A stretch of DNA of 64,000 bases from a virus (Duplodnaviria > Caudoviricetes), in the IMG/VR virus record IMGVR_UViG_3300030708_003106, positions 1-64,000 of that record. One strand, given 5' to 3'. Below are positions 27,697 through 56,643 of this stretch, piece by piece. The position numbers and the translations under genes are program-made. A model generated the notes under the pieces. The model saw only the letters and a program-made list of their open reading frames with translations. It was not told the DNA's origin and searched no databases. Positions within the stretch are counted from its first letter, which is position 1, and the number at the start of each line of letters is the position of its first letter.

Positions 27697-30600
27697 ATGT
27701 CAGATATGCATATCGGAAAGCAACCAATACGAGCTAATAGTAAATTTTACGACCGAAGTGGTAATGTTGGAGCTGCTTCTTCAATTTTAGTTGCTGCTCA
27801 AAATGGAGAGGTGGAATGGATTCACCCATATGACGCAGGACTACAAGGTCTCCAAGGTACTCAAGGTGTTCAGGGTATTCTAGGAACAGAAGGAAAACAT
27901 CCTGGAGTTGAGCTTGAATTTGATAGTTCAACTAGTACTAGTAATATGAGTAATGGACTGATGAGGTTCAATACCTCTAATCAGTATCAGGCATCGCAAA
28001 TTATCATCAGCAACCAGGATTACCATGGAAATGGAATCTCCGCTTGGGTTAATACTTTTGATGACACCACTAACCCTGGTGATAAAGGGACGTTATGGAT
28101 ATATGGAAGTGATGATGACCAAACTTGGGATACGAATGAATTTATTATTGCTACAGTAACTGATATTACTAGTTACTTTGGTTATAAAGTAATAGATATT
28201 ACAATTAGACAGACAAACTATGGTTTTAGTGATGGTGATCGTGTATTTTTACAATTCTATGCTATAGGAGATCAAGGTACTCAAGGTATTCAGGGCGTTC
28301 AAGGTACTCAAGGCGTTCAAGGCGTTCAAGGTGTTCAGGGCACTCAAGGTATTCAAGGTGTTCAGGGCACTCAAGGTATTCAAGGTATTACTGGAACAGA
28401 AGGACAACACGCAGGAATTCCATATGAATTTAGTACTAGCACATCTAATGCTGATCCTGGCAATGGAAAATTTAGATATAATTCCCAATATACTTGGCAA
28501 ACAACTCGAATTTATATCGACGATCGGGCAGCGGGTGGTGGTGCTGATCTTCAACCTTGGTTGAGAACTTTTGATGATTCCACTGACCCCAATAGTAAGG
28601 GTCATTTAGTAATTTATGGTAGTGATGATGATCAAACTTGGGATTCATATGAACTTCATATTTGGAATATTACTTCTGTAACAGAACATACTGGTTATTT
28701 TGAACTAGCCGTTACTTCTGTTGATACAAATTATTCATTTAGTAATGGTGATATTTGTTTCTTACAATTCTATAGAACTGGTGATAGAGGTCTTCAAGGT
28801 GATGCTGCTAGTGTCCAGGGTATTCAAGGTATAAAAGGAAACCAAGGTGTTTTTGGTATTCAGGGTGATGCTTCTACCGTTCAAGGTCTTCAGGGCACTC
28901 AAGGTAGAACAGGAAACCAGGGTAGAACAGGTATTCAAGGTGATGCATCATCTGTCCAAGGTCTTCAAGGTACTCAAGGCATAAAAGGAAACCAAGGAAA
29001 CTTAGGTATTCAAGGTGACGCAGCATCTGTTCAGGGTCTCCAAGGTATTCAAGGCACAAAAGGAAACCAGGGTATTTTAGGCGTCCAAGGTGATGCTGCT
29101 GAGGTTCAGGGTCTTCAAGGTATTCAAGGACAATTAGGAAACCAGGGTATTTTAGGAATCCAAGGTGATGCTGCTAGTGTCCAGGGTATTCAAGGTACTC
29201 AAGGTGTTATTGGATTCTCCGGAACAAATAACATAATTTGGGAGAGAAGTGCTAATAACATTACTACCAACAGCAGTAGTTGGAAAAGATTTAAATCTGA
29301 TGGAACGAATAATGCTAGTTACTATGATTTCTCTGGTAATGCCTGGTGGTATTTTGGTGGAACTACTAATGTCACCGATTACTTAGATGATTTGCGGTCA
29401 CAAATAAATGGTGGCAGTAAAATGTATATGACCGTCAACAAGTTTGACTGGTCTCAGTACATGGTATATGAAGTTACTGCAATTACATTAAGTGCAGGTA
29501 CTGCTAGTAGTGGATCTTCTGTTTGGAGATTTAGTGTTTCTCATATATCAACACATAACATAACTGGAACAGGAAGTTTCTCATTCACTAACTATGATGA
29601 ATATCATTTCAACTTCCAAGTAACTGGTGCTCAAGGTGCTCAGGGTGTTGACGGACAATATGCAGGTATAGGTCTTCAAGGTCTCCAGGGTATTCAAGGT
29701 AGAACAGGAAACCAGGGTAGAACAGGTGTTCAAGGTGATGCTGCTACTGTTCAGGGTCTCCAGGGTATTCAAGGAAGATTAGGAAACCAGGGAATATTAG
29801 GTATTCAGGGTGATGCCTCTAGTGTCCAAGGTCTTCAGGGTGTTCAAGGTAGAACAGGAAACCAAGGAAACTTGGGTGTTCAAGGTGATGCAGCATCTGT
29901 TCAAGGTTTAACAGGTGTTCAAGGTAGAAGAGGATTCCAAGGACACTTAGGTGTTCAAGGTGATGCTGCTAGTGTTCAGGGTCTCCAAGGCACTCAAGGT
30001 GGAGGAGGAAACCAGGGTACAACTGGTACTGGACTTCAGGGTGACGCAGCATCTGTTCAAGGTCTTCAGGGCATTCAAGGTAGAAAAGGAAACCAAGGAA
30101 ACTACGGCGTTCAAGGTGATGCTGCTACTGTCCAAGGTCTACAGGGTGTTCAAGGCAGAACAGGAAGCCAGGGAATATTAGGTGTTCAAGGTGATGCAGC
30201 ATCCGTTCAGGGTCTTCAGGGTGGTCAAGGTGTAACCGGCGATCAATTTACAGCACAAACTTATACAATTAGTGTTCCAGGAGGATCTGGTGGTGGATAT
30301 TATATTAATGGCGTATCGAGAGATGATCTTTTCCTAATAAGAGGTCAAAGATATGTCTTTGATCAATCATCTTCTACAAATAATAACCACCCAATAAGAC
30401 TTTCTACTACAAGTAACGGAACTCATGCTGGTGGAACTCAATATACTTCTGGATGGACATATACTGGAACAGCAGGTTCAAATGGAGAAGCAGTATTCGT
30501 AGTTCCTTTCGATGCACCAAATACATTATATTATTATTGCGCCAACCACTCTGGAATGGCTGGTAGTGCTAGTATTTCAATCAGAAATTTAAATGCTGAA

Positions 30601-31719
30601 GATCTTCAAGGTATAAAAGGTAATCAAGGAGATGACGGTGTTCAGGGTGATGCAGCATCTGTTCAAGGTCTTCAAGGAAATATAGGAGCAGGTTCACAAG
30701 GTGCTGCTGGACCCCAAGGCAATGCTGCTAATGTTCAAGGTATTCAGGGTCCACAAGGTGTTCAAGGAAATAATGGACTTCAGGGCATTTATGGCGTTCA
30801 AGGTAGAACTGGTGCAGGTAATCAGGGTGCTGACGGATCTCAAGGTATAACTGGTGCTGGATTACAAGGTGATGCTGCTAGTGTCCAAGGTCTTCAGGGT
30901 ACTCAGGGAGATTTTGGTGTCCAAGGTCAAGTTGGACTGCCAGTTAAGAGTGGAGTATATAACATAGTAGTACACAGTAGTCAGAGTTCTTACGGTACAC
31001 CATCAAGTTTACCGAGTGGTAGTTTTGCATTTAATGGTTTCAGAGCATCTTCTACATCACAAGTGTTTGTTTCAGTATTTGATGCTCAGGGTAGAAACTT
31101 TGTTCCTTGGTCAACATCCAATTTCCCTGCTGATTTAGAACTTCAATTCAAGTCTGGAAGTTACTGGACATATTTTAGATTTAAAGCAACCTCTAGAGGT
31201 AGTATCACTCATGGTAGTGGTGGTAATCCATCATTCTATGCAGTCAACGTAAGTTCAGCCACTTATTCAAACACTAATACCCAAATGCATCAGTGGTATT
31301 ATGCAGTTAATGGTAATGGTTCTATTGGTGGCAGTGACCCAGGAACAGGAACTGCTAATGGGTGGTTGATGACTTTTGGACCAGCTCCAGGTCTCCAGGG
31401 TGTTCAAGGTGGTGAAGGTCCTCAAGGTGGCACTGGTCTTCAAGGTCTTGATGGTTTTGGATTACAAGGTTCTCTTGGTATTCAAGGTATTCAAGGTACT
31501 GATGGAACAGGATTGCAGGGTATTCAAGGTGCAGATGCATCTGCAATTGCTGCACAAGGAGCTCCTGGACCTCAAGGTTTGACTGGTGCTGGTTCTCAAG
31601 GTGCAATAGGTACTCAAGGAGATGCAGCATCCGTTCAAGGTATTCAAGGTCCATCAGGATCTGTTGGAGGAGATACAGTTTCAACTCCTCTCGCTATTGC
31701 TCTTGCTGCCGCGTTGTAA
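27697..31719 (+). CDS. Collagen-like (Gly-X-Gln) fibre protein with globular inserts and a cupredoxin-like domain
   Basis: Long G-X-Q runs interrupted by DAASV; NHPIRL...[10 protein letters not shown]; C-terminal LAIALAAAL. Confidence 0.85.
28783..30240 (+). repeat. Degenerate tandem repeats of about 75 bp/25 aa ([25 protein letters not shown]), interrupted at about 29215-29625
   Basis: Visible caaggt/cagggt periodicity. Confidence 0.85.
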
Positions 31720-41267: not shown

Positions 41268-41298
41268 TTCTGAAGCCTCCAAAGTGTCCTAGTTATAT
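41268..41298 (+). repeat. 31-bp cassette element R1, with hairpin extending to 41310
   Basis: TTCTGAAGCCTCCAAAGTGTCCTAGTTATAT; AAAGTGTCC pairs with GGACACTTT. Confidence 0.9.
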
Positions 41299-41313
41299 CA
41301 GGGACACTTTTTG

Positions 41314-41412
41314 ATGTCAACTACTGAAAAATTAATTTTCATTGGATCATTTTTATGGATGATGCAATGGGGAACCCGTGTGACTTTGCTTGCGATCAAT
41401 GCTCTCTCTTGA
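41314..41412 (+). CDS. 32-aa hydrophobic peptide
   Basis: Manual translation MSTTEKLIFIGSFLWMMQWGTRVTLLAINALS, directly after R1. Confidence 0.55.
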   Translation: MSTTEKLIFIGSFLWMMQWGTRVTLLAINALS

Positions 41413-43516: not shown

Positions 43517-43817
43517 CATTAAATATCATGATGCTTTTCCATGGAGGTTAGTGAATGGTGACACAATATGCCATTTTGAGTGCAGAGAACACTTGCAGAA
43601 ATACTTAGATAGATATAAACTGAAACCTAGAAACTGTAGCATTACACATAAAGATGGAAAACCCTTTGAATCCCGTGAAAAACACAAGAGAAACGTGGAG
43701 TCGTCAACATCAAAGAAAAATAACGGAAGTTCAAGTGCAGTTCGCAAACGAAAATCCAGCGTGGATTCCACTCGAAACACTTCTAGCAATTCAAAACGTA
43801 AGAAAAATGGAAAGTAG
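43509..43817 (+). CDS. Hypothetical protein with basic tail
   Basis: ORF track; TTG start after AGGAGG. Confidence 0.6.
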   Translation: MPDIKYHDAFPWRLVNGDTICHFECREHLQKYLDRYKLKPRNCSITHKDGKPFESREKHKRNVESSTSKKNNGSSSAVRKRKSSVDSTRNTSSNSKRKKNGK

Positions 43818-44550: not shown

Positions 44551-44581
44551 AACTGAAGCCTGCAAAGTGTCCCTGTAGTGT
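44551..44581 (+). repeat. 31-bp cassette element R2
   Basis: AACTGAAGCCTGCAAAGTGTCCCTGTAGTGT. Confidence 0.95.
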
Positions 44582-44598
44582 AAGCACCACTCAAACAC

Positions 44599-45033
44599 AT
44601 GGGAACCCGCTCTCGCATCGGTATTCAACTCAAAGACGGCAGTATTCTGAGTTCTTATCATCACTGGGATGGATATCCTGAGTGGTTGGGTCGCATCCTC
44701 ACCACACATTACAACTCCCGCGAACAAGCAGCGGAACTGATTGATGGTGGTGACATGTCATGTGCATGGACAAAAGATCGCTGGACTGGTAAACAACTTT
44801 CTGCTTATGTGACTGAGCAGAAAGAAGCAGAAGAGTATGGTCCTCAGTATTATTCTGGACGCGGTGAAGATTGCCCTCCTCGTCTTGATGACAACATTGA
44901 GAAATTCCTTACAGATGGTGAAGAATATGGTTACATCTTTGAAAATGGTGAATGGAAGTGCTATGATACTAAAGACTGGTCCGATACATATAAGGAGCAG
45001 ATTTCCATTCCTGAAGGAGCATTGGCAGTATGA
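44599..45033 (+). CDS. Conserved phage hypothetical protein
   Basis: MGTRSRIG...YHHWDGYP motif. Confidence 0.75.
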   Translation: MGTRSRIGIQLKDGSILSSYHHWDGYPEWLGRILTTHYNSREQAAELIDGGDMSCAWTKDRWTGKQLSAYVTEQKEAEEYGPQYYSGRGEDCPPRLDDNIEKFLTDGEEYGYIFENGEWKCYDTKDWSDTYKEQISIPEGALAV

Positions 45034-46571: not shown

Positions 46572-46602
46572 AACTGAAGCCCCTAAACTGTTTTATTATT
46601 GT
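46572..46602 (+). repeat. 31-bp cassette element R3
   Basis: AACTGAAGCCCCTAAACTGTTTTATTATTGT. Confidence 0.9.
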
Positions 46603-46615
46603 AAGCACACCACTT

Positions 46616-46750
46616 ATGGACTGGTACGACGACATTCAAGTTGAAGAACTTCAAAACTTTGATCACATTGAAGAAGATCTCGAAGATTTGATTGAAGACA
46701 ATCAAAATTTCAACATGAAAGAATACCTCAACTCCAACATTGATTACTGA
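46616..46750 (+). CDS. 44-aa very acidic peptide
   Basis: Manual translation MDWYDDIQVEELQNFDHIEEDLEDLIEDNQNFNMKEYLNSNIDY (15 D/E). Confidence 0.65.
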   Translation: MDWYDDIQVEELQNFDHIEEDLEDLIEDNQNFNMKEYLNSNIDY

Positions 46751-47052: not shown

Positions 47053-47559
47053 ATGAAAACCTTTGCTGAATTTGTTGCAGAAGCATATGATAAGGATGTC
47101 ATGGGATCTTCCCAAATCCGTAAGCAAGGAGAGGGTGGAAGAGTTGGTGCTAATAGAAAGAAAACAGAACCAGAAAAGCGTAGAATGAAAGCAGCGGGTG
47201 GTGGAAAAATGGTCCCCGCAAAAGATTACAAACCCCGCAAAGATATTGGTTCTCAAAGGCAAAGATCTACAAGAGAGCAACAACCAACACAGGAAAGAGG
47301 ATCTGCTGCATTATCAGCAAAAGAAGCACAACGCAAGGCATATAGAGAAAGAAAGGCAAGAGAATCGGGTGCAAAGACTAAATCTGCATCAGAACTTCTG
47401 TCTAAGAAATCTGCTAAGAAAGTAAATCCTAACTATAAACCACAAAAAGCATCTGGATATACTAGAACCGAGAGACAGAAACTTCAGAGAACTGGCGATA
47501 GAATTATTCGCGACATTCGTAAGGGTAAAGACAAACCAGCATCTGCATACGAAAACTAA
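47053..47559 (+). CDS. Basic protein with a T4 capsid-targeting-like N-terminus (putative internal protein)
   Basis: MKTFAEFVAE compared with the T4 internal-protein CTS MKTYQEFIAE; K/R rich. Confidence 0.65.
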   Translation: MKTFAEFVAEAYDKDVMGSSQIRKQGEGGRVGANRKKTEPEKRRMKAAGGGKMVPAKDYKPRKDIGSQRQRSTREQQPTQERGSAALSAKEAQRKAYRERKARESGAKTKSASELLSKKSAKKVNPNYKPQKASGYTRTERQKLQRTGDRIIRDIRKGKDKPASAYEN

Positions 47560-47589
47560 ACTGAAGCCCCTAAAGCGTCTCAGTAGTGT
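47559..47589 (+). repeat. 31-bp cassette element R4, with hairpin extending to about 47599
   Basis: AACTGAAGCCCCTAAAGCGTCTCAGTAGTGT; GTCTCAG pairs with CTGAGAC. Confidence 0.95.
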
Positions 47590-47613
47590 CTGAGACCGCC
47601 TGCAAGACCTCTG

Positions 47614-47655
47614 AAACAACCTCTAGGTATATTTGTACTGCTGAGGTTGTTTTTT
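47614..47655 (+). terminator. Intrinsic terminator-like hairpin
   Basis: AAACAACCTC/GAGGTTGTTT stem followed by a T run. Confidence 0.65.
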
Positions 47656-47656
47656 A

Positions 47657-47685
47657 TTGACAGGCAATTCTGACTCTGCTAAACT
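47657..47685 (+). promoter_or_regulatory. sigma70-type promoter of the R-M pair
   Basis: TTGACA-17-TAAACT, then AAGGAG RBS. Confidence 0.75.
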
Positions 47686-47706
47686 ACTATTTTAAGGAGA
47701 CCACCG

Positions 47707-48240
47707 ATGGGAGTTTCACAACTTTCCGAAATCGTTGCTCTCGGTTTTGAAGAACTCATTGCTGAGGGTGACACAAGGGAAATTGGCAAGTTTCTTGCAT
47801 TTCCAACCGAACGTATCATCGCCCCGCAATGGTTGCGCGAAGAATGTGGAATCGAAAATGATAAATCTCCCGATGATCTTGATGGTCAGCAGGAAAAGTA
47901 CGATAGACTTTCTTCAAAAGGTCTGCGTATTCAAGTTAAGTATCGTGGAGGAAATACTCTCCACATGGAACAAACTCGCCGCACTACTGGCAAAAATGCA
48001 AACAATGGTGCTAAGAATGGGCAGGTTCGCTATGCAGTGAACTCGTTTGATGTTATACTGTTTATTATCCCCAAAGGTCACGAAGATATTTCAAAGTGGG
48101 AATATCTTGCTATTCCTAGTTGTGAACTTGAAGATAAAAATATGCCTGGATATTGTGTAGGTTCTGTTCCTGCTGCTGTCCGTAAAAAGTACACTGGTCG
48201 CGCAAAGGAGGTTCTGGTTGCTCTCAACAATGCTGAATGA
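47707..48240 (+). CDS. Putative PD-(D/E)xK restriction endonuclease
   Basis: YD...RIQVK...Y...FDVILF pattern; overlaps the methyltransferase gene. Confidence 0.55.
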   Translation: MGVSQLSEIVALGFEELIAEGDTREIGKFLAFPTERIIAPQWLREECGIENDKSPDDLDGQQEKYDRLSSKGLRIQVKYRGGNTLHMEQTRRTTGKNANNGAKNGQVRYAVNSFDVILFIIPKGHEDISKWEYLAIPSCELEDKNMPGYCVGSVPAAVRKKYTGRAKEVLVALNNAE

Positions 48241-49177
48241 ATATACAATCGGTGACAGTAGAGAACTACTGAAAGAAGTTGATGCAAACTCGGTGGATCT
48301 AATTTATATTGATCCACCATATTGCACTGGCAGAGACTTCTATCACTTTGATGATCGATTCAAATCGAGTGCAGATTATCGTGAATTGTTGATGCGTCCT
48401 TTATTGGAAGAATGTCATCGTGTTCTGACTGATTGTGGCAACATTGTTGTGCATGTAGAACCTAAGATCTCTCATCATATTCGCATTGTCCTTGATGACG
48501 TATTTGGTGAGAATAGATTTAAGAATGAGATTGCTTGGGTTTCTGGCGGCAACCACAAATCAAAAAAGCAACTGCAACGCAATCATGATACGATCATTGT
48601 TTATCAGAAAGGAAAAGAATCCATCTATAATGCAGAGCACAAAGAATATGATGAGGATACTGTAAGGAAGGCAAAGATCTGTCCAATTCGCAAAAAGAAA
48701 TACAATACATCTGCACTTGTTAATCGTCAACCAAATGTTGTATCTCGCCCTAATTTGAGATATGAATGGAATGGTAATCATCTCCAGTGGCATGTATCAA
48801 AGGAGAGGATGCAGATGCTTCATGATGATAATCGATTAGAATATTCTCCTAACACAGGTATTCCTAGAGTCAAGAAGTATTTGGATGAAATGGATGGAAT
48901 CCCTGTCAAAGATGTATGGTCTGATGTAAAACAGATTCAGGGAAATGAGAAGTTAGATTATGCAACTCAAAAACCTGTTGCACTCTTAAATCGCATACTT
49001 CGCATGTTCAGTAACAAAAACTCTATTGTTCTTGATCCTTGTGCTGGATCTGGTACAGTAGGCAGAAGCGCCAGACAGACAGATAGAAATTACATTTTAT
49101 TTGATCTTAACACTGAAGGCAAAAAACTATTTGAAGAATCAATTAAAAATCCATTGCTCGACGCAATGGTCAGTTAA
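48218..49177 (+). CDS. DNA N6-adenine/N4-cytosine methyltransferase, beta class
   Basis: IDPPY precedes TQKP and VLDPCAGSGT; AAGGAGG lies 6 nt before the TTG start. Confidence 0.9.
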   Translation: MLSTMLNEYTIGDSRELLKEVDANSVDLIYIDPPYCTGRDFYHFDDRFKSSADYRELLMRPLLEECHRVLTDCGNIVVHVEPKISHHIRIVLDDVFGENRFKNEIAWVSGGNHKSKKQLQRNHDTIIVYQKGKESIYNAEHKEYDEDTVRKAKICPIRKKKYNTSALVNRQPNVVSRPNLRYEWNGNHLQWHVSKERMQMLHDDNRLEYSPNTGIPRVKKYLDEMDGIPVKDVWSDVKQIQGNEKLDYATQKPVALLNRILRMFSNKNSIVLDPCAGSGTVGRSARQTDRNYILFDLNTEGKKLFEESIKNPLLDAMVS

Positions 49178-49180
49178 ATT

Positions 49181-49211
49181 AACTGAAGCCCCTAAAATGT
49201 CCTAGTAATAC
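49181..49211 (+). repeat. 31-bp cassette element R5
   Basis: AACTGAAGCCCCTAAAATGTCCTAGTAATAC. Confidence 0.95.
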
Positions 49212-49224
49212 TGATACGCCCTAG

Positions 49225-50415
49225 ATGATTACACTTCGCCCACATCAGGAACGCATCACAAATCGTATGCGTGACTACAACAAAGGTCAGATTATTGTTC
49301 CTACTGGTGGTGGTAAAACTCTCACCATGATTGTTGATACTCGGGATCGTCATGATTCTATCAACAATGGAACCACTACCGTTGTTGTTGCTCCGCGTAT
49401 TCTGCTGGCAGAACAACTGTGCAGCGAATTTATGGAGGTTATTGATACTGCTCACACACATGTAATGCATGTTCATAGTGGAGAAACTTCATATTTCTCT
49501 ACAACAAAGGCAGAAAAGATCAATCTATTTGTAAATACCGCTAGAACTGCTGGTGAGAATGTAATTATCTTCACCACTTATCATTCTTTGCATCGTTTGC
49601 AGGAGGCAGATATTGAAGTCAATACGATCTACTTTGATGAAGCGCATAATTCTGTGCAGAGAAACTTTTTCCCTGCTACGGAATACTTTGCTGCTGATTC
49701 TGATCGTTGCTATTTCTTCACTGCTACTCCTAAACATTCTCTTACTGTTTCTAAACCTGGGATGAATGATTTTGCTGTTTATGGTCAGGTTCTGGCAAAT
49801 GTTCCTGCTCCTGAACTAGTTGAAGGTGGTTACATTCTTCCTCCCAAAGTTGTAGTCAAGTCGCTTCCTTTGATCAAAGGTCGCAAAGTCATGTATGCTG
49901 AAGATGCTGATAATTTGATCGAAACTATTGATGAGAACAACATCGACAAGACTTTGATTTGTGCTCGCACTACGAAGCAGATTGTGGGTCTTCTTTCTCA
50001 GTCTGATTTCTGTGCTGAACTTGCTCAGCGTGGATATTCTTGGATGACGATCACATCGAAGACTGGTGCAATCATTGATGGTAAGAAAGTCAATCGTGAG
50101 CAATTCTTTGAGACTCTGAACACTTGGGGCAAAGATCCTGAGAAGAAGTTTGTTGTCATTCACCACAGCATTTTGTCTGAAGGCATCAACGTGAGTGGAC
50201 TTGAAGCAGTTATTTTCATGCGTAACATGGATTATATCGGCATCAGTCAATCTATCGGTCGTGTGATTCGTTTGGGTGGCAAGTCTAAGACCTTTGGTCT
50301 AGTTTGCATCCCAACTTATGATTCTGTTGGTATTTCTACTGCTCGCAAAGTTCAGGCAGTTGTTGATGTTGTATTCAACAAAGGTGAACCCGCTATTTCT
50401 GAGATTCGTCGATGA
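49225..50415 (+). CDS. SF2 DEAH helicase/translocase (type III Res-like)
   Basis: LRPHQ, PTGGGKT, DEAH, TATP, LSEGIN, QSIGRVIR. Confidence 0.9.
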   Translation: MITLRPHQERITNRMRDYNKGQIIVPTGGGKTLTMIVDTRDRHDSINNGTTTVVVAPRILLAEQLCSEFMEVIDTAHTHVMHVHSGETSYFSTTKAEKINLFVNTARTAGENVIIFTTYHSLHRLQEADIEVNTIYFDEAHNSVQRNFFPATEYFAADSDRCYFFTATPKHSLTVSKPGMNDFAVYGQVLANVPAPELVEGGYILPPKVVVKSLPLIKGRKVMYAEDADNLIETIDENNIDKTLICARTTKQIVGLLSQSDFCAELAQRGYSWMTITSKTGAIIDGKKVNREQFFETLNTWGKDPEKKFVVIHHSILSEGINVSGLEAVIFMRNMDYIGISQSIGRVIRLGGKSKTFGLVCIPTYDSVGISTARKVQAVVDVVFNKGEPAISEIRR

Positions 50416-50654: not shown

Positions 50655-50685
50655 AACTGAAGCCCCTAAACTGTCCTAGTAGTAT
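50655..50685 (+). repeat. 31-bp cassette element R6 (supplies the ATG at 50684)
   Basis: AACTGAAGCCCCTAAACTGTCCTAGTAGTAT. Confidence 0.95.
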
Positions 50686-51577
50686 GAAGAACACTCATTT
50701 GCAACATCCTGAAGATTCTATTCTGACTGGAGACCTTTCAGTTCTTGATTGGTTCGGTGAGTCGGATAGTATTATCAGCACCAAAATGGATGGCGCTCCT
50801 GCTATTGTTTGGGGCACAGATCCTGCGACTGGTACATTCTTTGTTGGCACTAAATCTGTCTTCAACAAAGTAAAAATCAAAATCAATCATTCACATGAAG
50901 AAATTGACAAGAATCACGAAGGCAAAGTTGCTCGTATTCTTCATGCTTGCTTTGATTGTTTGCCTCGCACTCAATCCATTATTCAGGGTGATTTTATTGG
51001 GTATGGTGGTAGTGATACTTTTCGCCCCAATACGATTACTTATGTCTTCCCTCAAATAGTATCGGAAGATATTATTATTGCACCTCATACTTTGTATTTT
51101 GGTGTTGATCTGCGAACTGTAAAAGCAGCACCTTTGACTAACAAACTGATCAGCACTGATTCTTGTTTGTTTGTCCAACCTGAAGTTTCTTTGCATCCTC
51201 ATCGTGAAGATTTGGTAGATGTTTGTGCATTTGCCAAGCAAATGTCTACTCTATGTGAGTTTGTCACTCCAAACAAAGCAACAAAAATCAAAAAACATAT
51301 CAATGACTGCATCCGTGGGGAAAACTACATTGATGAAGATGAAATTGCAGAAAAATTTGATTGTGACATCAACTTGATCCGATTGTGGAAGTTGGTTGCA
51401 TCTATCAAGGAAGATTTGTTCTGCTTCATTGATGAGTGTGATGACATTGGTTGTTTGATTGGTGAAGAAGTTACATTGCATGAAGGTTATGTCATCACCA
51501 ACAAATATGGCATGTTCAAGGTTGTTGATCGTGAGGAGTTTTCCCGTGCAAACTTTATCATGGAAAAGACTTGGTAA
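50684..51577 (+). CDS. Conserved phage protein with ligase-type nucleotidyltransferase motifs
   Basis: TKMDG (KxDG), QGD, HEGYVI, FKVVDR. Confidence 0.6.
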   Translation: MKNTHLQHPEDSILTGDLSVLDWFGESDSIISTKMDGAPAIVWGTDPATGTFFVGTKSVFNKVKIKINHSHEEIDKNHEGKVARILHACFDCLPRTQSIIQGDFIGYGGSDTFRPNTITYVFPQIVSEDIIIAPHTLYFGVDLRTVKAAPLTNKLISTDSCLFVQPEVSLHPHREDLVDVCAFAKQMSTLCEFVTPNKATKIKKHINDCIRGENYIDEDEIAEKFDCDINLIRLWKLVASIKEDLFCFIDECDDIGCLIGEEVTLHEGYVITNKYGMFKVVDREEFSRANFIMEKTW

Positions 51578-51581
51578 TTAA

Positions 51582-51612
51582 AACTGAAGCCCCTAAACTG
51601 TCCTAGTTACAT
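51582..51612 (+). repeat. 31-bp cassette element R7 (ATG at 51611)
   Basis: AACTGAAGCCCCTAAACTGTCCTAGTTACAT. Confidence 0.95.
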
Positions 51613-52000
51613 GAGCACTGATTCCATGACCACTCAATCCTTCGCTGACTACGTTGCCACGCAAGATGCACGCAACACGATTCAACTTAACGTGCGTAAG
51701 TATACGCTGATGTTGTGTGATGCTCTGCTGGACAATTTCAAGTCCCGCAACAATCGCAAGGATAGTGGTTACAAATTCTACATTGAAGAAGGTCGCAAAT
51801 ATCATAAAATTATCATGGAAACTGGTGGAAACTCCCGCAGTGTTCATGCCTTTGTTGATAAGAAGACTGGTGATCTGTATAAAGCAGCATCATTCAAATC
51901 TCCTGCCAAAGGAGTACGTTTCAACCTTTGCATCATCAGTGATCGTGAATGGTTGCTGGAAAATGCTGACTGGGCAGGTGGATACTTGTACGCTCGTTAA
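51611..52000 (+). CDS. Conserved phage hypothetical protein
   Basis: GRKYHKI...SVHAFVDKKTGDLYKAAS...PAKGVR motif. Confidence 0.75.
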   Translation: MSTDSMTTQSFADYVATQDARNTIQLNVRKYTLMLCDALLDNFKSRNNRKDSGYKFYIEEGRKYHKIIMETGGNSRSVHAFVDKKTGDLYKAASFKSPAKGVRFNLCIISDREWLLENADWAGGYLYAR

Positions 52001-52004
52001 TTAA

Positions 52005-52035
52005 AACTGAAGCCTCCAAAGTGTCCCTATAGTAT
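52005..52035 (+). repeat. 31-bp cassette element R8 (ATG at 52034)
   Basis: AACTGAAGCCTCCAAAGTGTCCCTATAGTAT. Confidence 0.95.
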
Positions 52036-52213
52036 GAGCACAACTAAAATGACAATCACCGAACGCAATCAACAACTCTTCGATCTTCGTAAAAAACTTG
52101 ATCAGAAGAAAATGGAGATGGCATGGATTGAAACTCAAATCATGGCAGTTAATGCACAATATGATCGTGAGAATCGTGAAACCCCATTGTTCGATGAAAT
52201 GTTCGGAGGTTGA
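52034..52213 (+). CDS. 59-aa hypothetical protein
   Basis: Manual translation MSTTKMTITERNQQLF...PLFDEMFGG. Confidence 0.65.
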   Translation: MSTTKMTITERNQQLFDLRKKLDQKKMEMAWIETQIMAVNAQYDRENRETPLFDEMFGG

Positions 52214-52423
52214 TTGATGCAATTCCAAATTACTGAAATCGAATTAGATTTTGAAGATTCTCAAGGTGTTCTATCTCATAATGAACAAACTGAAATTGTT
52301 GATGATTTAGTTGGTCACATCTGGGAAGCAGATGATGAAGATGATCTCATTGAAGAAATCACATGTGCATCAGGTTGGTGTGTCAAATCCATCGATTTTC
52401 GTTATGCTCTAAACGCATCTTAA
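52214..52423 (+). CDS. Acidic hypothetical protein
   Basis: ORF track; WEADDEDDLIEEIT. Confidence 0.7.
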   Translation: MMQFQITEIELDFEDSQGVLSHNEQTEIVDDLVGHIWEADDEDDLIEEITCASGWCVKSIDFRYALNAS

Positions 52424-52424
52424 A

Positions 52425-52613
52425 ATGAAAACAACAACTGCAACTTATTCAATCACAGTTACAACTGATGAGGGTACACTATCATTTTTGAGGACAATGC
52501 CCACACGTCCAAAAACATCTAAGGGCATTAAAGCACATAATACTAGATTGGAAAACTATGCCATGAAGCAGTATCCAAACTGGAAAGAAATCGACGTTAA
52601 ACTATTGCCATGA
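52425..52613 (+). CDS. Hypothetical protein
   Basis: ORF track. Confidence 0.65.
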   Translation: MKTTTATYSITVTTDEGTLSFLRTMPTRPKTSKGIKAHNTRLENYAMKQYPNWKEIDVKLLP

Positions 52614-52780
52614 GTAACATCGAAGATGTAACAAACTCTCCCAAAGATTGGGAAGACTTTTGGTACAATTCCGAGTCAGATGGACAGGAATTTGAGAAAC
52701 TTCCCCCATACCTTGAAGCAGTCTTAGGACTCTCAAAATACCCTGCTGATTGTAAACGCGAATCCCCACTTTCAGAATGA
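52610..52780 (+). CDS. 56-aa hypothetical protein
   Basis: Manual translation MSNIEDVTNSPKDWEDFW...; ATGA overlaps on both sides. Confidence 0.6.
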   Translation: MSNIEDVTNSPKDWEDFWYNSESDGQEFEKLPPYLEAVLGLSKYPADCKRESPLSE

Positions 52781-52944
52781 TCACTAACAAAGCACAAATG
52801 CTCAACGTCATGTCAAAATGTGACGGTGCAGATACACTCACCCGAGAGGAAAAGTTTCAAGTCTTTTGTAATGTTTGCGACAACATGTTGAAAGAAGGTA
52901 GAATTAGCAAAGCAAATCACAAGCGTTGGACTAACATTTGGTAA
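52777..52944 (+). CDS. 55-aa hypothetical protein
   Basis: Manual translation MITNKAQMLNVMSKCDG...RWTNIW. Confidence 0.6.
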   Translation: MITNKAQMLNVMSKCDGADTLTREEKFQVFCNVCDNMLKEGRISKANHKRWTNIW

Positions 52945-52946
52945 TT

Positions 52947-53171
52947 ATGAAAGTTGATACAATAGGCAGGATTATTGGTTCAGTTCTTGTAATCGTTGCC
53001 TATTTTGTTATTTTACACATTGATCTCACATTTGGGGTGACATTAAACTTCATTGGTGATGCAATTTCCATTCCATTCTTTATACGAACAAAGTCCTGGG
53101 ATGTTGTCATTATGTTAGTTTTCTTATTGTGTATTTCTTCCAGTAAATTATTTGGGTTTGGTTTATCATGA
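52947..53171 (+). CDS. Small multi-pass membrane protein
   Basis: Three hydrophobic segments; ATG inside track ORF 52938..53171. Confidence 0.65.
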   Translation: MKVDTIGRIIGSVLVIVAYFVILHIDLTFGVTLNFIGDAISIPFFIRTKSWDVVIMLVFLLCISSSKLFGFGLS

Positions 53172-53308
53172 AATGCGAAGTAAAGTTGTACGTTGCAGGA
53201 AAAGTTTTCGCTGAGGAAGTATATGCGAAAGATTATCAAGAGGCAAGGGAAGTTGCATTAGCACGCAATCCTAATGCAAAAGTAATAGGAGTGACAGCAA
53301 AGTTCTAA
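53168..53308 (+). CDS. 46-aa hypothetical protein
   Basis: Manual translation MKCEVKLYVAGKVFAEEVYAKDYQEAREVALARNPNAKVIGVTAKF. Confidence 0.65.
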   Translation: MKCEVKLYVAGKVFAEEVYAKDYQEAREVALARNPNAKVIGVTAKF

Positions 53309-53316
53309 GGATTAGA

Positions 53317-53347
53317 AACTGAAGCCTCCAAAGTGTCCTAGTAGTAT
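53317..53347 (+). repeat. 31-bp cassette element R9 (ATG at 53346)
   Basis: AACTGAAGCCTCCAAAGTGTCCTAGTAGTAT. Confidence 0.95.
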
Positions 53348-53561
53348 GAAGACCACTCAAATGCAAATCAGCACCGCTTTCACTGATGCTTTGGAGTCCA
53401 TGTCTGGGTTCTTTTATGAAATGAATCCTGATCTGGATATGTGCTACGATTATGTTTGCGAGATTGCAGAAATTGATTCTTTCGTTGACAATAAAGAAGC
53501 ATGGGATATGTTCTATGAAGCATGGGAAAAGGTTGCTGAGGAGAACTTTATCGATGTCTGA
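53346..53561 (+). CDS. Acidic hypothetical protein
   Basis: ORF track. Confidence 0.65.
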   Translation: MKTTQMQISTAFTDALESMSGFFYEMNPDLDMCYDYVCEIAEIDSFVDNKEAWDMFYEAWEKVAEENFIDV

Positions 53562-53775
53562 TTCTATCAAAACTTATCCACTTTTTTCTGAACTTATGAG
53601 CATTACTAATCCTTACGTTGAAAATCTTGTCGAGATGGGATATGATCGAAAAGACGTAGAAACGGCGTCTACGATGTTTCAAAAGAAAACGTTTCCATAT
53701 ACAATTCACGGTCGCACTTATCAGACCGAAGAAGAATATAATGAAGCGATTCACGAGTTTATGAATGGCATGTAA
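53554..53775 (+). CDS. Hypothetical protein
   Basis: Track ORF 53452..53775; internal ATG preferred. Confidence 0.6.
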   Translation: MSDSIKTYPLFSELMSITNPYVENLVEMGYDRKDVETASTMFQKKTFPYTIHGRTYQTEEEYNEAIHEFMNGM

Positions 53776-53789
53776 TTCAGAGGTTTAAT

Positions 53790-53820
53790 AACTGAAGCCC
53801 CTAAAGTGTCCCAGTAGTAT
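53790..53820 (+). repeat. 31-bp cassette element R10 (ATG at 53819)
   Basis: AACTGAAGCCCCTAAAGTGTCCCAGTAGTAT. Confidence 0.95.
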
Positions 53821-53992
53821 GAACAACACTCAAGAAACCAAATTCCTTCTCTATGGTCAATTCCATCGCGCAAATGGTTGGATTATGAACGACTGTTTGG
53901 GTTACATTAAGGCAACAGAACAAGAGGCAATCGATACATGTAAGCGCCTCAATCCTAACTTTGTCATTCAATCTATCACCATCGAAAAATGA
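53819..53992 (+). CDS. 57-aa hypothetical protein
   Basis: Manual translation MNNTQETKFLLYGQFHRANGW...; ATGA overlap with the next gene. Confidence 0.65.
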   Translation: MNNTQETKFLLYGQFHRANGWIMNDCLGYIKATEQEAIDTCKRLNPNFVIQSITIEK

Positions 53993-54273
53993 ACTACACT
54001 CTCTGGCATCTCCAACAACGTGTCAACAAACTGATCGAACAACAAGGTGAAGATGCACATTGTGCGGCATGGATTTACACCAAGGAAGATTGTTTTTTGA
54101 CTGATGATAATGGTGAGCAGGAATATCCATGTGATGAACATCCTGAACTTGCTGAACGTATCTTCAATGATGTTGGAAACATTGATTACATCTACACTGT
54201 CATTCAAGAGTGTGTGGATGAAGTAACTGAAGAACAATATATGGCATATCAACAAGAACTTTCAGAGGTTTAA
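53989..54273 (+). CDS. Acidic hypothetical protein
   Basis: ORF track. Confidence 0.7.
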   Translation: MNYTLWHLQQRVNKLIEQQGEDAHCAAWIYTKEDCFLTDDNGEQEYPCDEHPELAERIFNDVGNIDYIYTVIQECVDEVTEEQYMAYQQELSEV

Positions 54274-54274
54274 T

Positions 54275-54305
54275 AACTGAAGCCTCCAAAGTGTTTCTAT
54301 AGTAT
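54275..54305 (+). repeat. 31-bp cassette element R11
   Basis: AACTGAAGCCTCCAAAGTGTTTCTATAGTAT. Confidence 0.95.
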
Positions 54306-54334
54306 AGGCACCGATTCATTTTTCTTTTCTTCAC

Positions 54335-54607
54335 ATGCAAGTCACTAATTCTGCTGTCATTGTTGATTACTTCCCCGAGGCATTTATTGCTGAGTCTTGT
54401 GAGAAGAAAGGTGTGAAAGTTGTTGTCAAACGTTTCATCCGCCGCGTTAAGTTTCGTGCTACTGGTCAAAAATCTTATAGCACAGTTCTTGGTATTGAAG
54501 CAAAATATGATTGGCAAGCGCGTATTGCTAAAGGTGCAGAAGTGACTGACTTTAACACTGAAAAAATGCCTCGCTCTGAGTTCATGCCTCTTGCATGTGT
54601 GGGGTGA
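54335..54607 (+). CDS. Hypothetical protein
   Basis: ORF track. Confidence 0.7.
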   Translation: MQVTNSAVIVDYFPEAFIAESCEKKGVKVVVKRFIRRVKFRATGQKSYSTVLGIEAKYDWQARIAKGAEVTDFNTEKMPRSEFMPLACVG

Positions 54608-54610
54608 TTT

Positions 54611-54796
54611 ATGTCACTGATCAAACTTTATCTTCACAACAAAATGATGGACCGACTTGAAATGTTGACTCAACGTGAACAACTTATGGAGGACATTGAT
54701 TGTATCATTGAATCAAACTTTGGAGAGGTTGAATATAAAGATGATGTAATTCGTCAACTGTGTGATGCAGTCTGCAAAAACTTTCCAACCGACTAA
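54611..54796 (+). CDS. Hypothetical protein
   Basis: ORF track. Confidence 0.6.
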   Translation: MSLIKLYLHNKMMDRLEMLTQREQLMEDIDCIIESNFGEVEYKDDVIRQLCDAVCKNFPTD

Positions 54797-55032
54797 TGTC
54801 TTTCGTTTCATTTTCCACCGATCCAAACATCATGAACCAAGAGCAACTTAACAGACTTAAAGAGAACTATGCCAACCTCATTGTTGATGGGATGGATATG
54901 GATACTCTCGTTCAATTCGCACTTGATAGTCTCATGAATGATATGGAAAAATGGGATGAAGTAGATGTTAAAGAAGAAGTTCTTTATTTGTATGATGATG
55001 AAACTTGGAAAGATCTTCAAGAGTCAGTGTAA
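54796..55032 (+). CDS. Acidic hypothetical protein
   Basis: ORF track. Confidence 0.65.
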   Translation: MSFVSFSTDPNIMNQEQLNRLKENYANLIVDGMDMDTLVQFALDSLMNDMEKWDEVDVKEEVLYLYDDETWKDLQESV

Positions 55033-55106
55033 CTTACCGAGGTTTTCCGAGTAGCGCAGCGTTCCGGATTTTTTGATCATAAGTATCAATCAACCTCAGT
55101 AATACT

Positions 55107-55137
55107 AACTGAAGCCTGTAAAGTGTCCCTATAGTGT
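55107..55137 (+). repeat. 31-bp cassette element R12
   Basis: AACTGAAGCCTGTAAAGTGTCCCTATAGTGT; GTGTCC pairs with downstream GGACAC. Confidence 0.95.
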
Positions 55138-55166
55138 AAGGACACACAATCCCAACACTTTTCCAA

Positions 55167-55514
55167 ATGCGTAAGATCGAATCCCAAATGTGCCAAGCAG
55201 TTCAGTCTAACAAGAACTGGAGTTCTGGTAACACTACGGTTACGATTGATGAGGAAACTAATACTTCCTCTGTTTATCTTCACGGCAATCTGATTGCTAC
55301 TGTGACAGATAATGACATGACCATTTATGATGGTGGTTGGCAAAGTAACACCACTAAGTCGCGATTGAACGCTCTGTGTGATACTTTCTGTGTTGATGGT
55401 GAAGGTGTTTTCCAGGAGAATTTCGCCTGGTATGTGAGGAAGTTTGTAGGTGCAATTAACGGACAATCTAAGTTCGTCATCGAAACTTTTTCCAACGGTT
55501 ACATCTTTGCCTGA
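55167..55514 (+). CDS. Conserved phage hypothetical protein
   Basis: VYLHGNLIA...GWQSNTTKSRLNAL motif. Confidence 0.75.
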   Translation: MRKIESQMCQAVQSNKNWSSGNTTVTIDEETNTSSVYLHGNLIATVTDNDMTIYDGGWQSNTTKSRLNALCDTFCVDGEGVFQENFAWYVRKFVGAINGQSKFVIETFSNGYIFA

Positions 55515-55636
55515 GTCTTAACTTACATCTAGGCAGTACAGAATTGGGAGACTGATTCACAACGTAAGACCTAGTTTAACCAAGTGCTGAGTAACACTAT
55601 AAACTGCTCACATTTCACTCTAATTTACATCAACTC

Positions 55637-55783
55637 ATGTCTAAAGAAGTTCTCATCGGTATGCTGAAAATTGCTCAGAACGGTGATCAAATGCTTCAAA
55701 TTCTTGACAGCATTACTGACACTGAAAAGGAGAGTATTTCCTCTGATGCAGTAGACTTCAGCGGTCAACCTGTCAACTTCTGA
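55637..55783 (+). CDS. 48-aa hypothetical protein
   Basis: Manual translation MSKEVLIGMLKIAQNGDQMLQILDSI...; followed by a terminator. Confidence 0.6.
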   Translation: MSKEVLIGMLKIAQNGDQMLQILDSITDTEKESISSDAVDFSGQPVNF

Positions 55784-55787
55784 TAAT

Positions 55788-55818
55788 AAGAAAGGGGCGC
55801 TAAAAATGCCCCTTTTTT
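55788..55818. terminator. Intrinsic terminator, possibly bidirectional
   Basis: AAGAAAGGGGCG-CTAAAAA-TGCCCCTTTTTT. Confidence 0.8.
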
Positions 55819-55998
55819 GCTATTATACATAAAGATTACCCTTTTTTTATATTAAAAATGTATTAAAAAATGTATTTACGTTGTTTGTATCGTGTTTAAC
55901 ATTGTTGGAAATGGAGTTACTTAGCAGTGTCTTCGTAGTTACTCTGGGGCGTATTTGTAGTGATTTTAATGCTCTCAGACGTTGTGATCTAAGCGAGC

Positions 55999-56027
55999 AG
56001 TCTATCACGAACGCGCAGAAATGTCAA
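55999..56027 (-). promoter_or_regulatory. Minus-strand sigma70-type promoter
   Basis: TTGACA-17-TAGACT on the minus strand. Confidence 0.55.
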
Positions 56028-56102
56028 CCGGGCGGAGATAAGTTTTACCAGGGATTGACAACACAAAACTATCAGACTTGCTAATAAATACTGAGAGGAT
56101 TA

Positions 56103-56131
56103 TTGACAGTTCCTCTCTGTTATTCTATACT
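56103..56131 (+). promoter_or_regulatory. sigma70-type promoter
   Basis: TTGACA-17-TATACT. Confidence 0.8.
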
Positions 56132-56160
56132 AGTAAAGTATCACTCAGGGAGTCTCACAA

Positions 56161-56334
56161 ATGCCGACAGTCTATCACCAGTCTCAAAAGAGTAAGTATC
56201 GCATCACTCTGGAAATTGAAGCATTAGCAGACTTCGACCCTCATCAGATTAACTGGGAGAAGTTGTTCAAATTGGAAGGCAATGAGTCTTGTGATGCGTA
56301 TATCGAAGACCTGTCAAATCCTGGTCGTTGGTGA
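56161..56334 (+). CDS. 57-aa hypothetical protein
   Basis: Manual translation MPTVYHQSQKSKYRITLE...; GGAG RBS and upstream promoter. Confidence 0.7.
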   Translation: MPTVYHQSQKSKYRITLEIEALADFDPHQINWEKLFKLEGNESCDAYIEDLSNPGRW

Positions 56335-56359
56335 TAGATTGTCAGTGGTGGGTGATAGT

Positions 56360-56390
56360 AACTGAAGCCTGTAAAGTGTCTCAGTAGTAT
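56360..56390 (+). repeat. 31-bp cassette element R13 (ATG at 56389)
   Basis: AACTGAAGCCTGTAAAGTGTCTCAGTAGTAT. Confidence 0.95.
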
Positions 56391-56643
56391 GAACATCACT
56401 TCGACAGACATGACCGCTCAAACTTACAACGGTTGGGCAAATTATGAGACCTGGAATGTTGCTCTGTGGTTGGGAAATGATGAGACTATGTATAACTTTG
56501 CCCGTATGTTTGCAGAGCATGGTTATAAGTCTCTGTCGCACCAGTTAGTAGAAACTTTCGGTGCAGTTACTCCTGATGGTGTGTATTGGAAGCACGCTGA
56601 TCTGAATATCAATGAACTGAATGAAATGTTGGAAGAACTCTGA
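56389..56643 (+). CDS. Conserved phage hypothetical protein
   Basis: YNGWANYETWNVALW...TPDGV motif. Confidence 0.75.
   Translation: MNITSTDMTAQTYNGWANYETWNVALWLGNDETMYNFARMFAEHGYKSLSHQLVETFGAVTPDGVYWKHADLNINELNEMLEEL

Follow-up and report, generated by a model that had tools for sequence, protein, structure and literature searches.

The repeated element and its genomic setting

The stretch analysed here, referred to as the window, comprises positions 1 to 64,000 of the virus record IMGVR_UViG_3300030708_003106 (64,000 nucleotides), which belongs to a contig of 91.6 kb with a completeness of about 43% and derives from a T4-like Synechococcus cyanomyovirus. Among cultured phages it is closest to the Synechococcus myoviruses SynMITS9220M01, S-SM2 and Bellamy, with about 80% nucleotide identity in patches. 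The region from 41 to 57 kb contains small genes, all on one strand and upstream of gp25/gp6, among them a helicase, a DNA methylase and many proteins with domains of unknown function (DUFs), and the block is syntenic with gp55-gp93 of Syn9. These genes are headed by copies of a 31-base element, which is probably a promoter whose messages begin at or close to element position 30, where many copies carry the start codon of the gene itself.

A pattern search for the element returned 15 matches, as compared with 0.20 expected by chance, and no shuffled sequence reached 15. Thirteen of the 15 matches are full copies (R1 to R13), all located on the plus strand between 41268 and 56390, at gene heads and in the orientation of the genes, and the rest of the 91.6-kb contig contains no further full copies. 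The two remaining matches, at 43618 and 49112, are look-alikes and were excluded from membership.

An earlier note on this DNA had pointed out that in six copies an ATG starts at element position 30 (hereafter ATG-30), and all six indeed begin open reading frames (ORFs). R6 (50655..50685) carries the ATG at 50684 of a DUF6267 protein of 297 aa, R7 (51582..51612) that of a DUF7717 protein (51611), R8 (52005..52035) that of a 59-aa protein (52034), R9 (53317..53347) that of a 71-aa protein (53346), R10 (53790..53820) that of a 57-aa protein (53819) and R13 (56360..56390) that of a DUF7249 protein of 84 aa (56389). A second in-frame ATG is found at position 45 in R7, R8 and R9 and at position 51 in R13, while R10 possesses no alternative start nearby. 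The further details of that note agree with the sequence, as the next in-frame ATG lies only at about codon 35 of the gene at 50684 and at codon 23 of that at 53819, no Shine-Dalgarno sequence (GGAG, GAGG or AGGA) precedes the six start codons within the element, a pyrimidine at position 29 is followed by a purine at position 30 in 13 of 13 copies, and CTGAAG is separated by 17 bp from TAGTRT. The view of the element as a third class of promoter also stands, with two other types present in the window, namely near-consensus sigma70-type promoters (41852, 56103, 56662 and 57077) and the T4 late gp55 motif TATAAATA, whose four sites (6981, 13965, 15849 and 27256, all on the plus strand and within 1-28 kb) are not above chance.

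Two-part anatomy and distribution in other viruses

An exact-pattern scan of uncultured viral contigs identified 94 stretches with the full element, and a scan for the downstream core alone identified more than 118, many contigs containing 4-12 copies. The family set assembled from such contigs comprises 687 distinct copies with at most 3 mismatches to the 18-nt core, and identity within and between contigs was compared in the 60 contigs possessing at least five copies. Positions 2-8 show an identity of 0.86-0.98 within a contig but only 0.29-0.46 between contigs, C9 (which is outside the search pattern) reaches 0.99 in both comparisons, positions 11-13 form a spacer that is variable even inside one contig, and positions 14-31 score equally within and between contigs, while the flanks drop to background. 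The element contains two parts, a box private to each phage genome (positions 1-8, more than 20 alleles) and a shared part made up of C9 and positions 14-31. As the flanks are at background while the box is uniform within and divergent between contigs, this distal box is, by its pattern of identity, private to each genome and maintained by selection rather than by recent copying.

Among cultured phages, the core is found in SynMITS9220M01, S-SM2, S-B05, S-B43, RN05-S and RB11-B, the first two of which have the same core with boxes of their own before orthologous genes. In S-SM2, element position 30 is the A of the start codon in SSM2_070 and SSM2_075. A BLAST search of one copy against cultured phages gave no match for the box allele of the window, and the core is absent from Syn9, P-TIM40, P-HM2, P-SSM2, S-PM2 and Bellamy (background level in Syn9 and P-TIM40). 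The search of the core against 596 Gb of bacterial genomes yielded only 63 scattered single chance matches, none of them cyanobacterial. A host-type promoter was rejected on the absence of the core from cyanobacterial genomes. Four contigs (L025, L127, L132 and L141) contain two private-box alleles each, as if cassettes had recently come from a phage with another box, which is expected if cassettes move together with their promoter. The look-alike at 43618-43648 resembles the private box with one mismatch and contains no core; it is not a decayed copy, as the same bases recur at the orthologous place in S-SM2, whose private box differs.

The ATG at position 30 as a start codon

Among the 687 copies, positions 30-32 read ATG in 270, GTA in 218, ATA in 99 and GTG in 19, and A30 is strongly coupled to G32 (odds ratio 28, p 1e-59), although G32 is outside the search pattern. 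In 250 of the 270 copies (93% in frame), ATG-30 opens an ORF of 35 aa or more and is the first ATG in it. Gene starts in the copies lacking ATG-30 are spread evenly over the three frames, and the in-frame rule is thus specific to ATG-30. Two or three of the 20 exceptions are real genes of 32-33 codons, while several other out-of-frame copies open mini-ORFs of 6-9 codons whose stop overlaps the main start (ATGA or TAATG), the layout expected of translational coupling.

Across the 36 distinct copies belonging to the DUF6267 family, codons 4, 6, 8 and 9 vary synonymously only, and the reading frame opened by ATG-30 is, on this codon pattern, under protein-level selection from codon 2 onward; the Pfam model of DUF6267 starts at residue 3. 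The PHROG profiles matching the proteins of R7 and R8 begin at the second methionine, and the first five codons of these two genes are thus a lineage-specific extension. At the level of sequence, these comparisons show ATG-30 to be the translated start of the downstream gene.

Probable position of the message start

The first gene ATG is located at position 30 in 250 copies of the family, at position 45 or beyond in 388 and between the two in 25. The leaders contain 11% G, and a Shine-Dalgarno-like 4-mer is present in only 16 of 340. Nineteen copies are located 3-13 nt after a GC-rich hairpin and T-run, which is a strong intrinsic terminator, and 14 of the 19 carry ATG-30, so that the message of these genes must begin inside the 29 nt before the ATG. 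A site directly after a terminator fits a promoter, but does not fit an RNA processing site.

This arrangement bears on the possibility that the element functions in RNA, either as a processing site or as a Shine-Dalgarno-independent translation signal on a long early transcript, which a phage-specific nuclease reading the private box would cut at 29/30. Such a role would suit repeats that lie between genes on one strand and share a conserved pyrimidine-purine step, the cut would equally produce messages with a 5'-terminal AUG, and the private box suggests a sequence-specific reader. However, the copies right after terminators have no upstream transcript to be processed, no conserved fold is found (stem lengths are not above those of a mismatched-partner control), Rfam gives no match, and for starts that follow 15-30 nt later the core cannot serve as a Shine-Dalgarno sequence. 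An RNA-level element is thus very unlikely.

A sample independent of the element is provided by 101 distinct 5' flanks of the DUF6267 gene. The core ends exactly at -1 in 64 of these flanks, which contain 26 different private boxes, while 25 possess another arrangement, referred to as the sister architecture, in which [T/C]AnnnT occupies precisely -12 to -7 (other offsets tested gave 0-3 each), and 12 fit neither. At the loci L383, L403, L422 and L423, and at about 20 others from metagenomes, the sister architecture is made up of an inverted repeat (7-nt half-site TGTGACA, 10-nt spacer), a terminator-like GC hairpin and T-run, TAnnnT, 6 nt and ATG. This half-site is similar in sequence to the shared core of the element, a likeness that hints at one reader for both. 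As the sister architecture has the canonical leaderless geometry before the same gene, the A of ATG-30 would by parity be +1. None of 120 metagenome stretches containing the 5' end of DUF6267 ends at the ATG, a result which is uninformative on transcript 5' ends.

The earlier note had weighed this start against a second reading, a sigma70 geometry with an altered -35. In its full form, this rival takes TAGTRT for the -10 box of a promoter of the host sigma70 type, which would start about 7 nt further on (positions 36-38), the private box standing in the -35 place in the manner of the T4 MotA box and ATG-30 genes being translated from read-through only. TAGTRT retains T26, A27 and T31, which are the key -10 positions, the spacer after CTGAAG measures 17 bp, A36 follows a C and is conserved, and the tight packing of the genes makes read-through possible in arrays. 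On the other hand, G28 and T29 are 80-99% conserved where a -10 box is loose, and the supposed -35 box differs among phages and is never TTGACA-like, being CTGAAG here and, for example, TTACTC, GGGGGG, TAGCTC or CTTGGA elsewhere. A start at 36-38 would further place ATG-30 codons, 93% of which are in frame and translated, outside the transcript, and would leave the 14 ATG-30 genes right after strong terminators with no message, whereas the sister architecture sets the ATG of the same gene at +1 of a true -10 box. A host-type promoter starting at 36-38 is therefore improbable. The start at position 30, and with it the leaderless message proposed in the earlier note, is supported as clearly the better of the two readings by the coupling and frame of ATG-30, the selection on its codons, the 14 terminator-adjacent copies and the sister architecture.

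Leadered copies, dyads and possible cassette boundaries

The seven copies without ATG-30 have the gene ATG at positions 45-61, except R4, where there is none for about 118 nt, and weaker conservation goes on to about position 45 whether the sequence is coding or not. R2 (44551..44581) precedes a gene ATG at 44599 (position 49), R3 (46572..46602) an ATG at 46616 (position 45), R5 (49181..49211) the ATG of the helicase gene at 49225 (position 45), R11 (54275..54305) the ATG at 54335 (position 61) of an orthologue of Syn9 gp73, and R12 (55107..55137) the ATG at 55167 (position 61) of a member of the Kyano_Gp96 family, with a gene-specific dyad.

R1 (41268..41298) has a box with one mismatch and is followed by an ATG at 41314 (position 47). 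The ORF that begins there (41314-41412) has 33 codons and a hydrophobic product, and its orthologues in two other contigs (L071 and L215) start at element position 30 and have 32 codons; as the orthologue begins at this position, the ORF, which would encode a small membrane peptide, is probably a real gene. R4 (47559..47589) is followed by about 118 nt (47590-47706) without an ORF start, perhaps a cassette in decay or the source of a short non-coding transcript. A sigma70-like promoter of its own (47657-47685) precedes the following gene, at 47707.

Dyads with arms around TAGTRT are present in R1 (41281-41311), R4 (47574-47597) and R12 (55123-55146), and the orthologous copies in SynMITS9220M01 and S-SM2 retain them through compensating changes, so that these dyads are gene-specific and not family-wide. 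The dyad of R1, which overlaps the copy, has a T-run after it and resembles a terminator. A general hairpin or dyad that puts TAGTRT in the loop was rejected, as stem lengths equal those of the control and dyads occur only in these few gene-specific copies and their orthologues.

A 24-bp duplication (53776-53799 and 54261-54284) comprises the end codons and stop of the gene 53989-54273 together with the opening bases of the element, and its other occurrence precedes R10; it looks like the scar of a cassette exchange by recombination at the element. The copies might accordingly be regarded as mainly recombination seams, integron-like or PeSL-like (promoter-early stem-loop) cassette boundaries that play no part in transcription themselves, as they head small-gene cassettes, one cassette is flanked by this duplication (53776 / 54261) and some contigs contain a foreign box allele. 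Recombination by itself, however, leaves the fixed register of the start codon, the strict orientation and the terminator-element-gene layout unexplained, and the Pfam and PHROG scans of the region revealed no integrase. Seams without any transcription role are thus extremely unlikely, while a role as a seam is compatible with promoter function and is probably real but secondary.

Further features were noted in the window. A strong terminator at 55787-55870 is followed by an AT-rich tract, and the segment 55999-56131 contains two promoters, TTGACA-17-TAGACT on the minus strand and a near-consensus one on the plus strand, in a layout that looks divergent. At 27800-31700, long arrays of repeats with 9-nt and 75-nt periods encode collagen-like Gly-X-Y in a large structural gene.

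Comparison with known systems

A novel element is reported to control the early genes of Syn9 and P-TIM40, and such elements are reportedly widespread in T4-like cyanophages (Doron et al. 2016, ISME J 10:1437). The kind of element described here is probably already known in that form, as the early-gene element of T4-like cyanophages. The core in the window is, on sequence comparison, a variant rather than the Syn9/P-TIM40 motif itself, as those two phages lack it. Like the element reported there, that of the window is non-host-like, stands before genes of early type, as judged by their positional orthology with the Syn9 block, and occurs alongside host-like (middle) and TATAAATA-type (late) promoters. 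The open papers citing Doron et al. 2016 do not give the motif, and no open paper linking 'leaderless' with cyanophages was found.

Syn9 shares the same small-gene block upstream of gp25/gp6, and the orthologous genes headed there are gp73, gp79 and gp90. Unlike the window, Syn9 has a diverged motif in five copies, which contain a TAnnnT-like hexamer and are followed by leaders of 17-19 nt, and de novo word counts in Syn9 recovered only the late motif. In Syn9 (NC_008296), the annotated GTG of gp73 at 48608 is located inside the early-type motif of that phage, while the alignment to the window orthologue begins at the ATG at 48641, and the start deposited for gp73 probably lies upstream of the true one.

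Leaderless genes with a promoter at a fixed distance are exemplified by lambda cI, transcribed from PRM, and by the TAnnnT-N6-ATG genes of actinobacteria and Deinococcus. The element resembles them in that the start codon has a fixed place relative to the promoter and no Shine-Dalgarno sequence is present, and the sister architecture is exactly their TAnnnT, 6 nt and ATG. The element differs from such genes and from sigma70 promoters in its -12 to -7 hexamer, which, with the start at position 30, is TGTCCY and not TAnnnT. The T4 late motif TATAAATA is likewise absent from the element.

Promoters of the T7 group are conserved contiguously up to +1 and combine a specificity part with a shared part for initiation, in which TA-rich sequence precedes a purine start. 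The element is similar in its conservation up to +1, in having a phage-specific part next to a shared part and in the TA-rich bases before its purine, but it is longer, and its private part is further upstream. The T4 middle promoters (MotA/AsiA) resemble it in having the box of a phage factor in the -35 place and in the idea of a redirected host polymerase, but differ in the unrelated box sequence, in serving middle rather than early genes and in having a -10 box in register with the start, which the element lacks.

The nearest described cassette system is that of the PeSL cassettes in the T4-type phages RB49/phi1, T4/PST and KVP40/nt-1 (PMC2839356, PMC4122927), each consisting of a near-consensus sigma70 promoter and a stem-loop (consensus sequences from PMC4122927). 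Like PeSLs, the copies are repeated modules in the plastic parts of T4-like genomes, where they head small genes whose function is unknown, and they are plausible gene-shuffling seams, given the mixed alleles and the 24-bp duplication. Unlike PeSLs, they have a genome-private box and lack both a -35/-10 box in register with the start and a general stem-loop.

Search for the reader protein

Covariation between proteins and alleles, examined with 306 protein families on 95 allele-typed contigs, revealed no family that stood out from general relatedness. That the early-region DNA methylase targets the private box was rejected, as methylases of quite different sequence accompany the same allele. 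PF00940 (T7-like RNA polymerase) had no match in the contig, S-SM2 or SynMITS9220M01, and the control genomes were silent too; PF09114 and PF09010 (MotA/AsiA) had no match in the 43%-complete contig, with control genomes again silent. A search for an extra sigma factor in the complete relatives S-SM2 and SynMITS9220M01 found only one gp55-sized ORF per genome.

Proposed mechanism and significance

The anatomy of the element, its pattern of conservation and the terminator-element-gene layout are direct observations on the sequences, from which we infer promoter function and the exact start site. The element is likely to be the early-gene promoter of this lineage, phage-only and of a non-sigma70 type, whose start is the purine at position 30 or lies no more than about 2 nt away from it. 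The earlier suggestion of a non-canonical promoter agrees with a box that is never TTGACA-like, a core absent from bacterial genomes and 19 copies right after strong terminators.

In this promoter, the private box would occupy -29 to -22 (here ACTGAAG plus flanking bases), followed by a universal C at -21 and by a core consisting of AAA at -16 to -14, GTGT at -13 to -10, TAGT at -4 to -1, a purine at +1 and T at +2, and the initial transcribed stretch to about +15 would be G-poor and CA-rich. Where +1 to +3 is ATG (6 of 13 copies here, 39% of the family), a leaderless message would result, with that ATG as its start codon, and the other copies would give a leader of 15-30 nt without a Shine-Dalgarno sequence. 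The private box would be read by a protein specified by the phage, and the core by a common component, which may be either a conserved protein of the phages or the host RNA polymerase acting with a factor. The phage factor postulated in the earlier note is suggested solely by the genome-private box. Tentatively, a specificity factor encoded by the phage, which either enters with the virion or is made at once on infection, may bind this box, direct host RNA polymerase to a leaderless promoter lacking -10 and -35 boxes, and co-evolve with the box.

Several points weigh against a promoter starting at position 30. The 687 copies were de-duplicated by sequence only and are not phylogenetically independent, the mixed alleles indicate that the box may not be strictly required, terminators can leak, and the gap in starts at positions 31-44 might partly reflect the G-poor constraint rather than ribosome geometry. 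In the leadered copies a start near 36-38 is possible, as TAGTRT (26-31) fits TAnnnT at 17 bp from the box and A36, with a C before it, is 78-87% conserved. In addition, the searches described above found no candidate reader protein.

T4-like cyanophages are among the most abundant marine viruses. On the question of how their infection starts without the known regulators of T4, a phage-only early promoter of the kind proposed here would give three handles, namely a predicted start site at position 30, a predicted class of leaderless early messages and a genome-private box, exchangeable between the cultured phages S-SM2 and SynMITS9220M01 in the hunt for the reader. Gene starts are corrected as well, the ATG inside the repeat being the true start of many small early genes. 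If the reading of the private box as the site of a phage specificity factor is true, it would account for the ability of early modules to pass from phage to phage and yet to be homogenised to the resident box, and the more than 20 distinct alleles among otherwise related marine cyanomyoviruses would represent natural orthogonal early-transcription systems in some of the most abundant viruses of the ocean.

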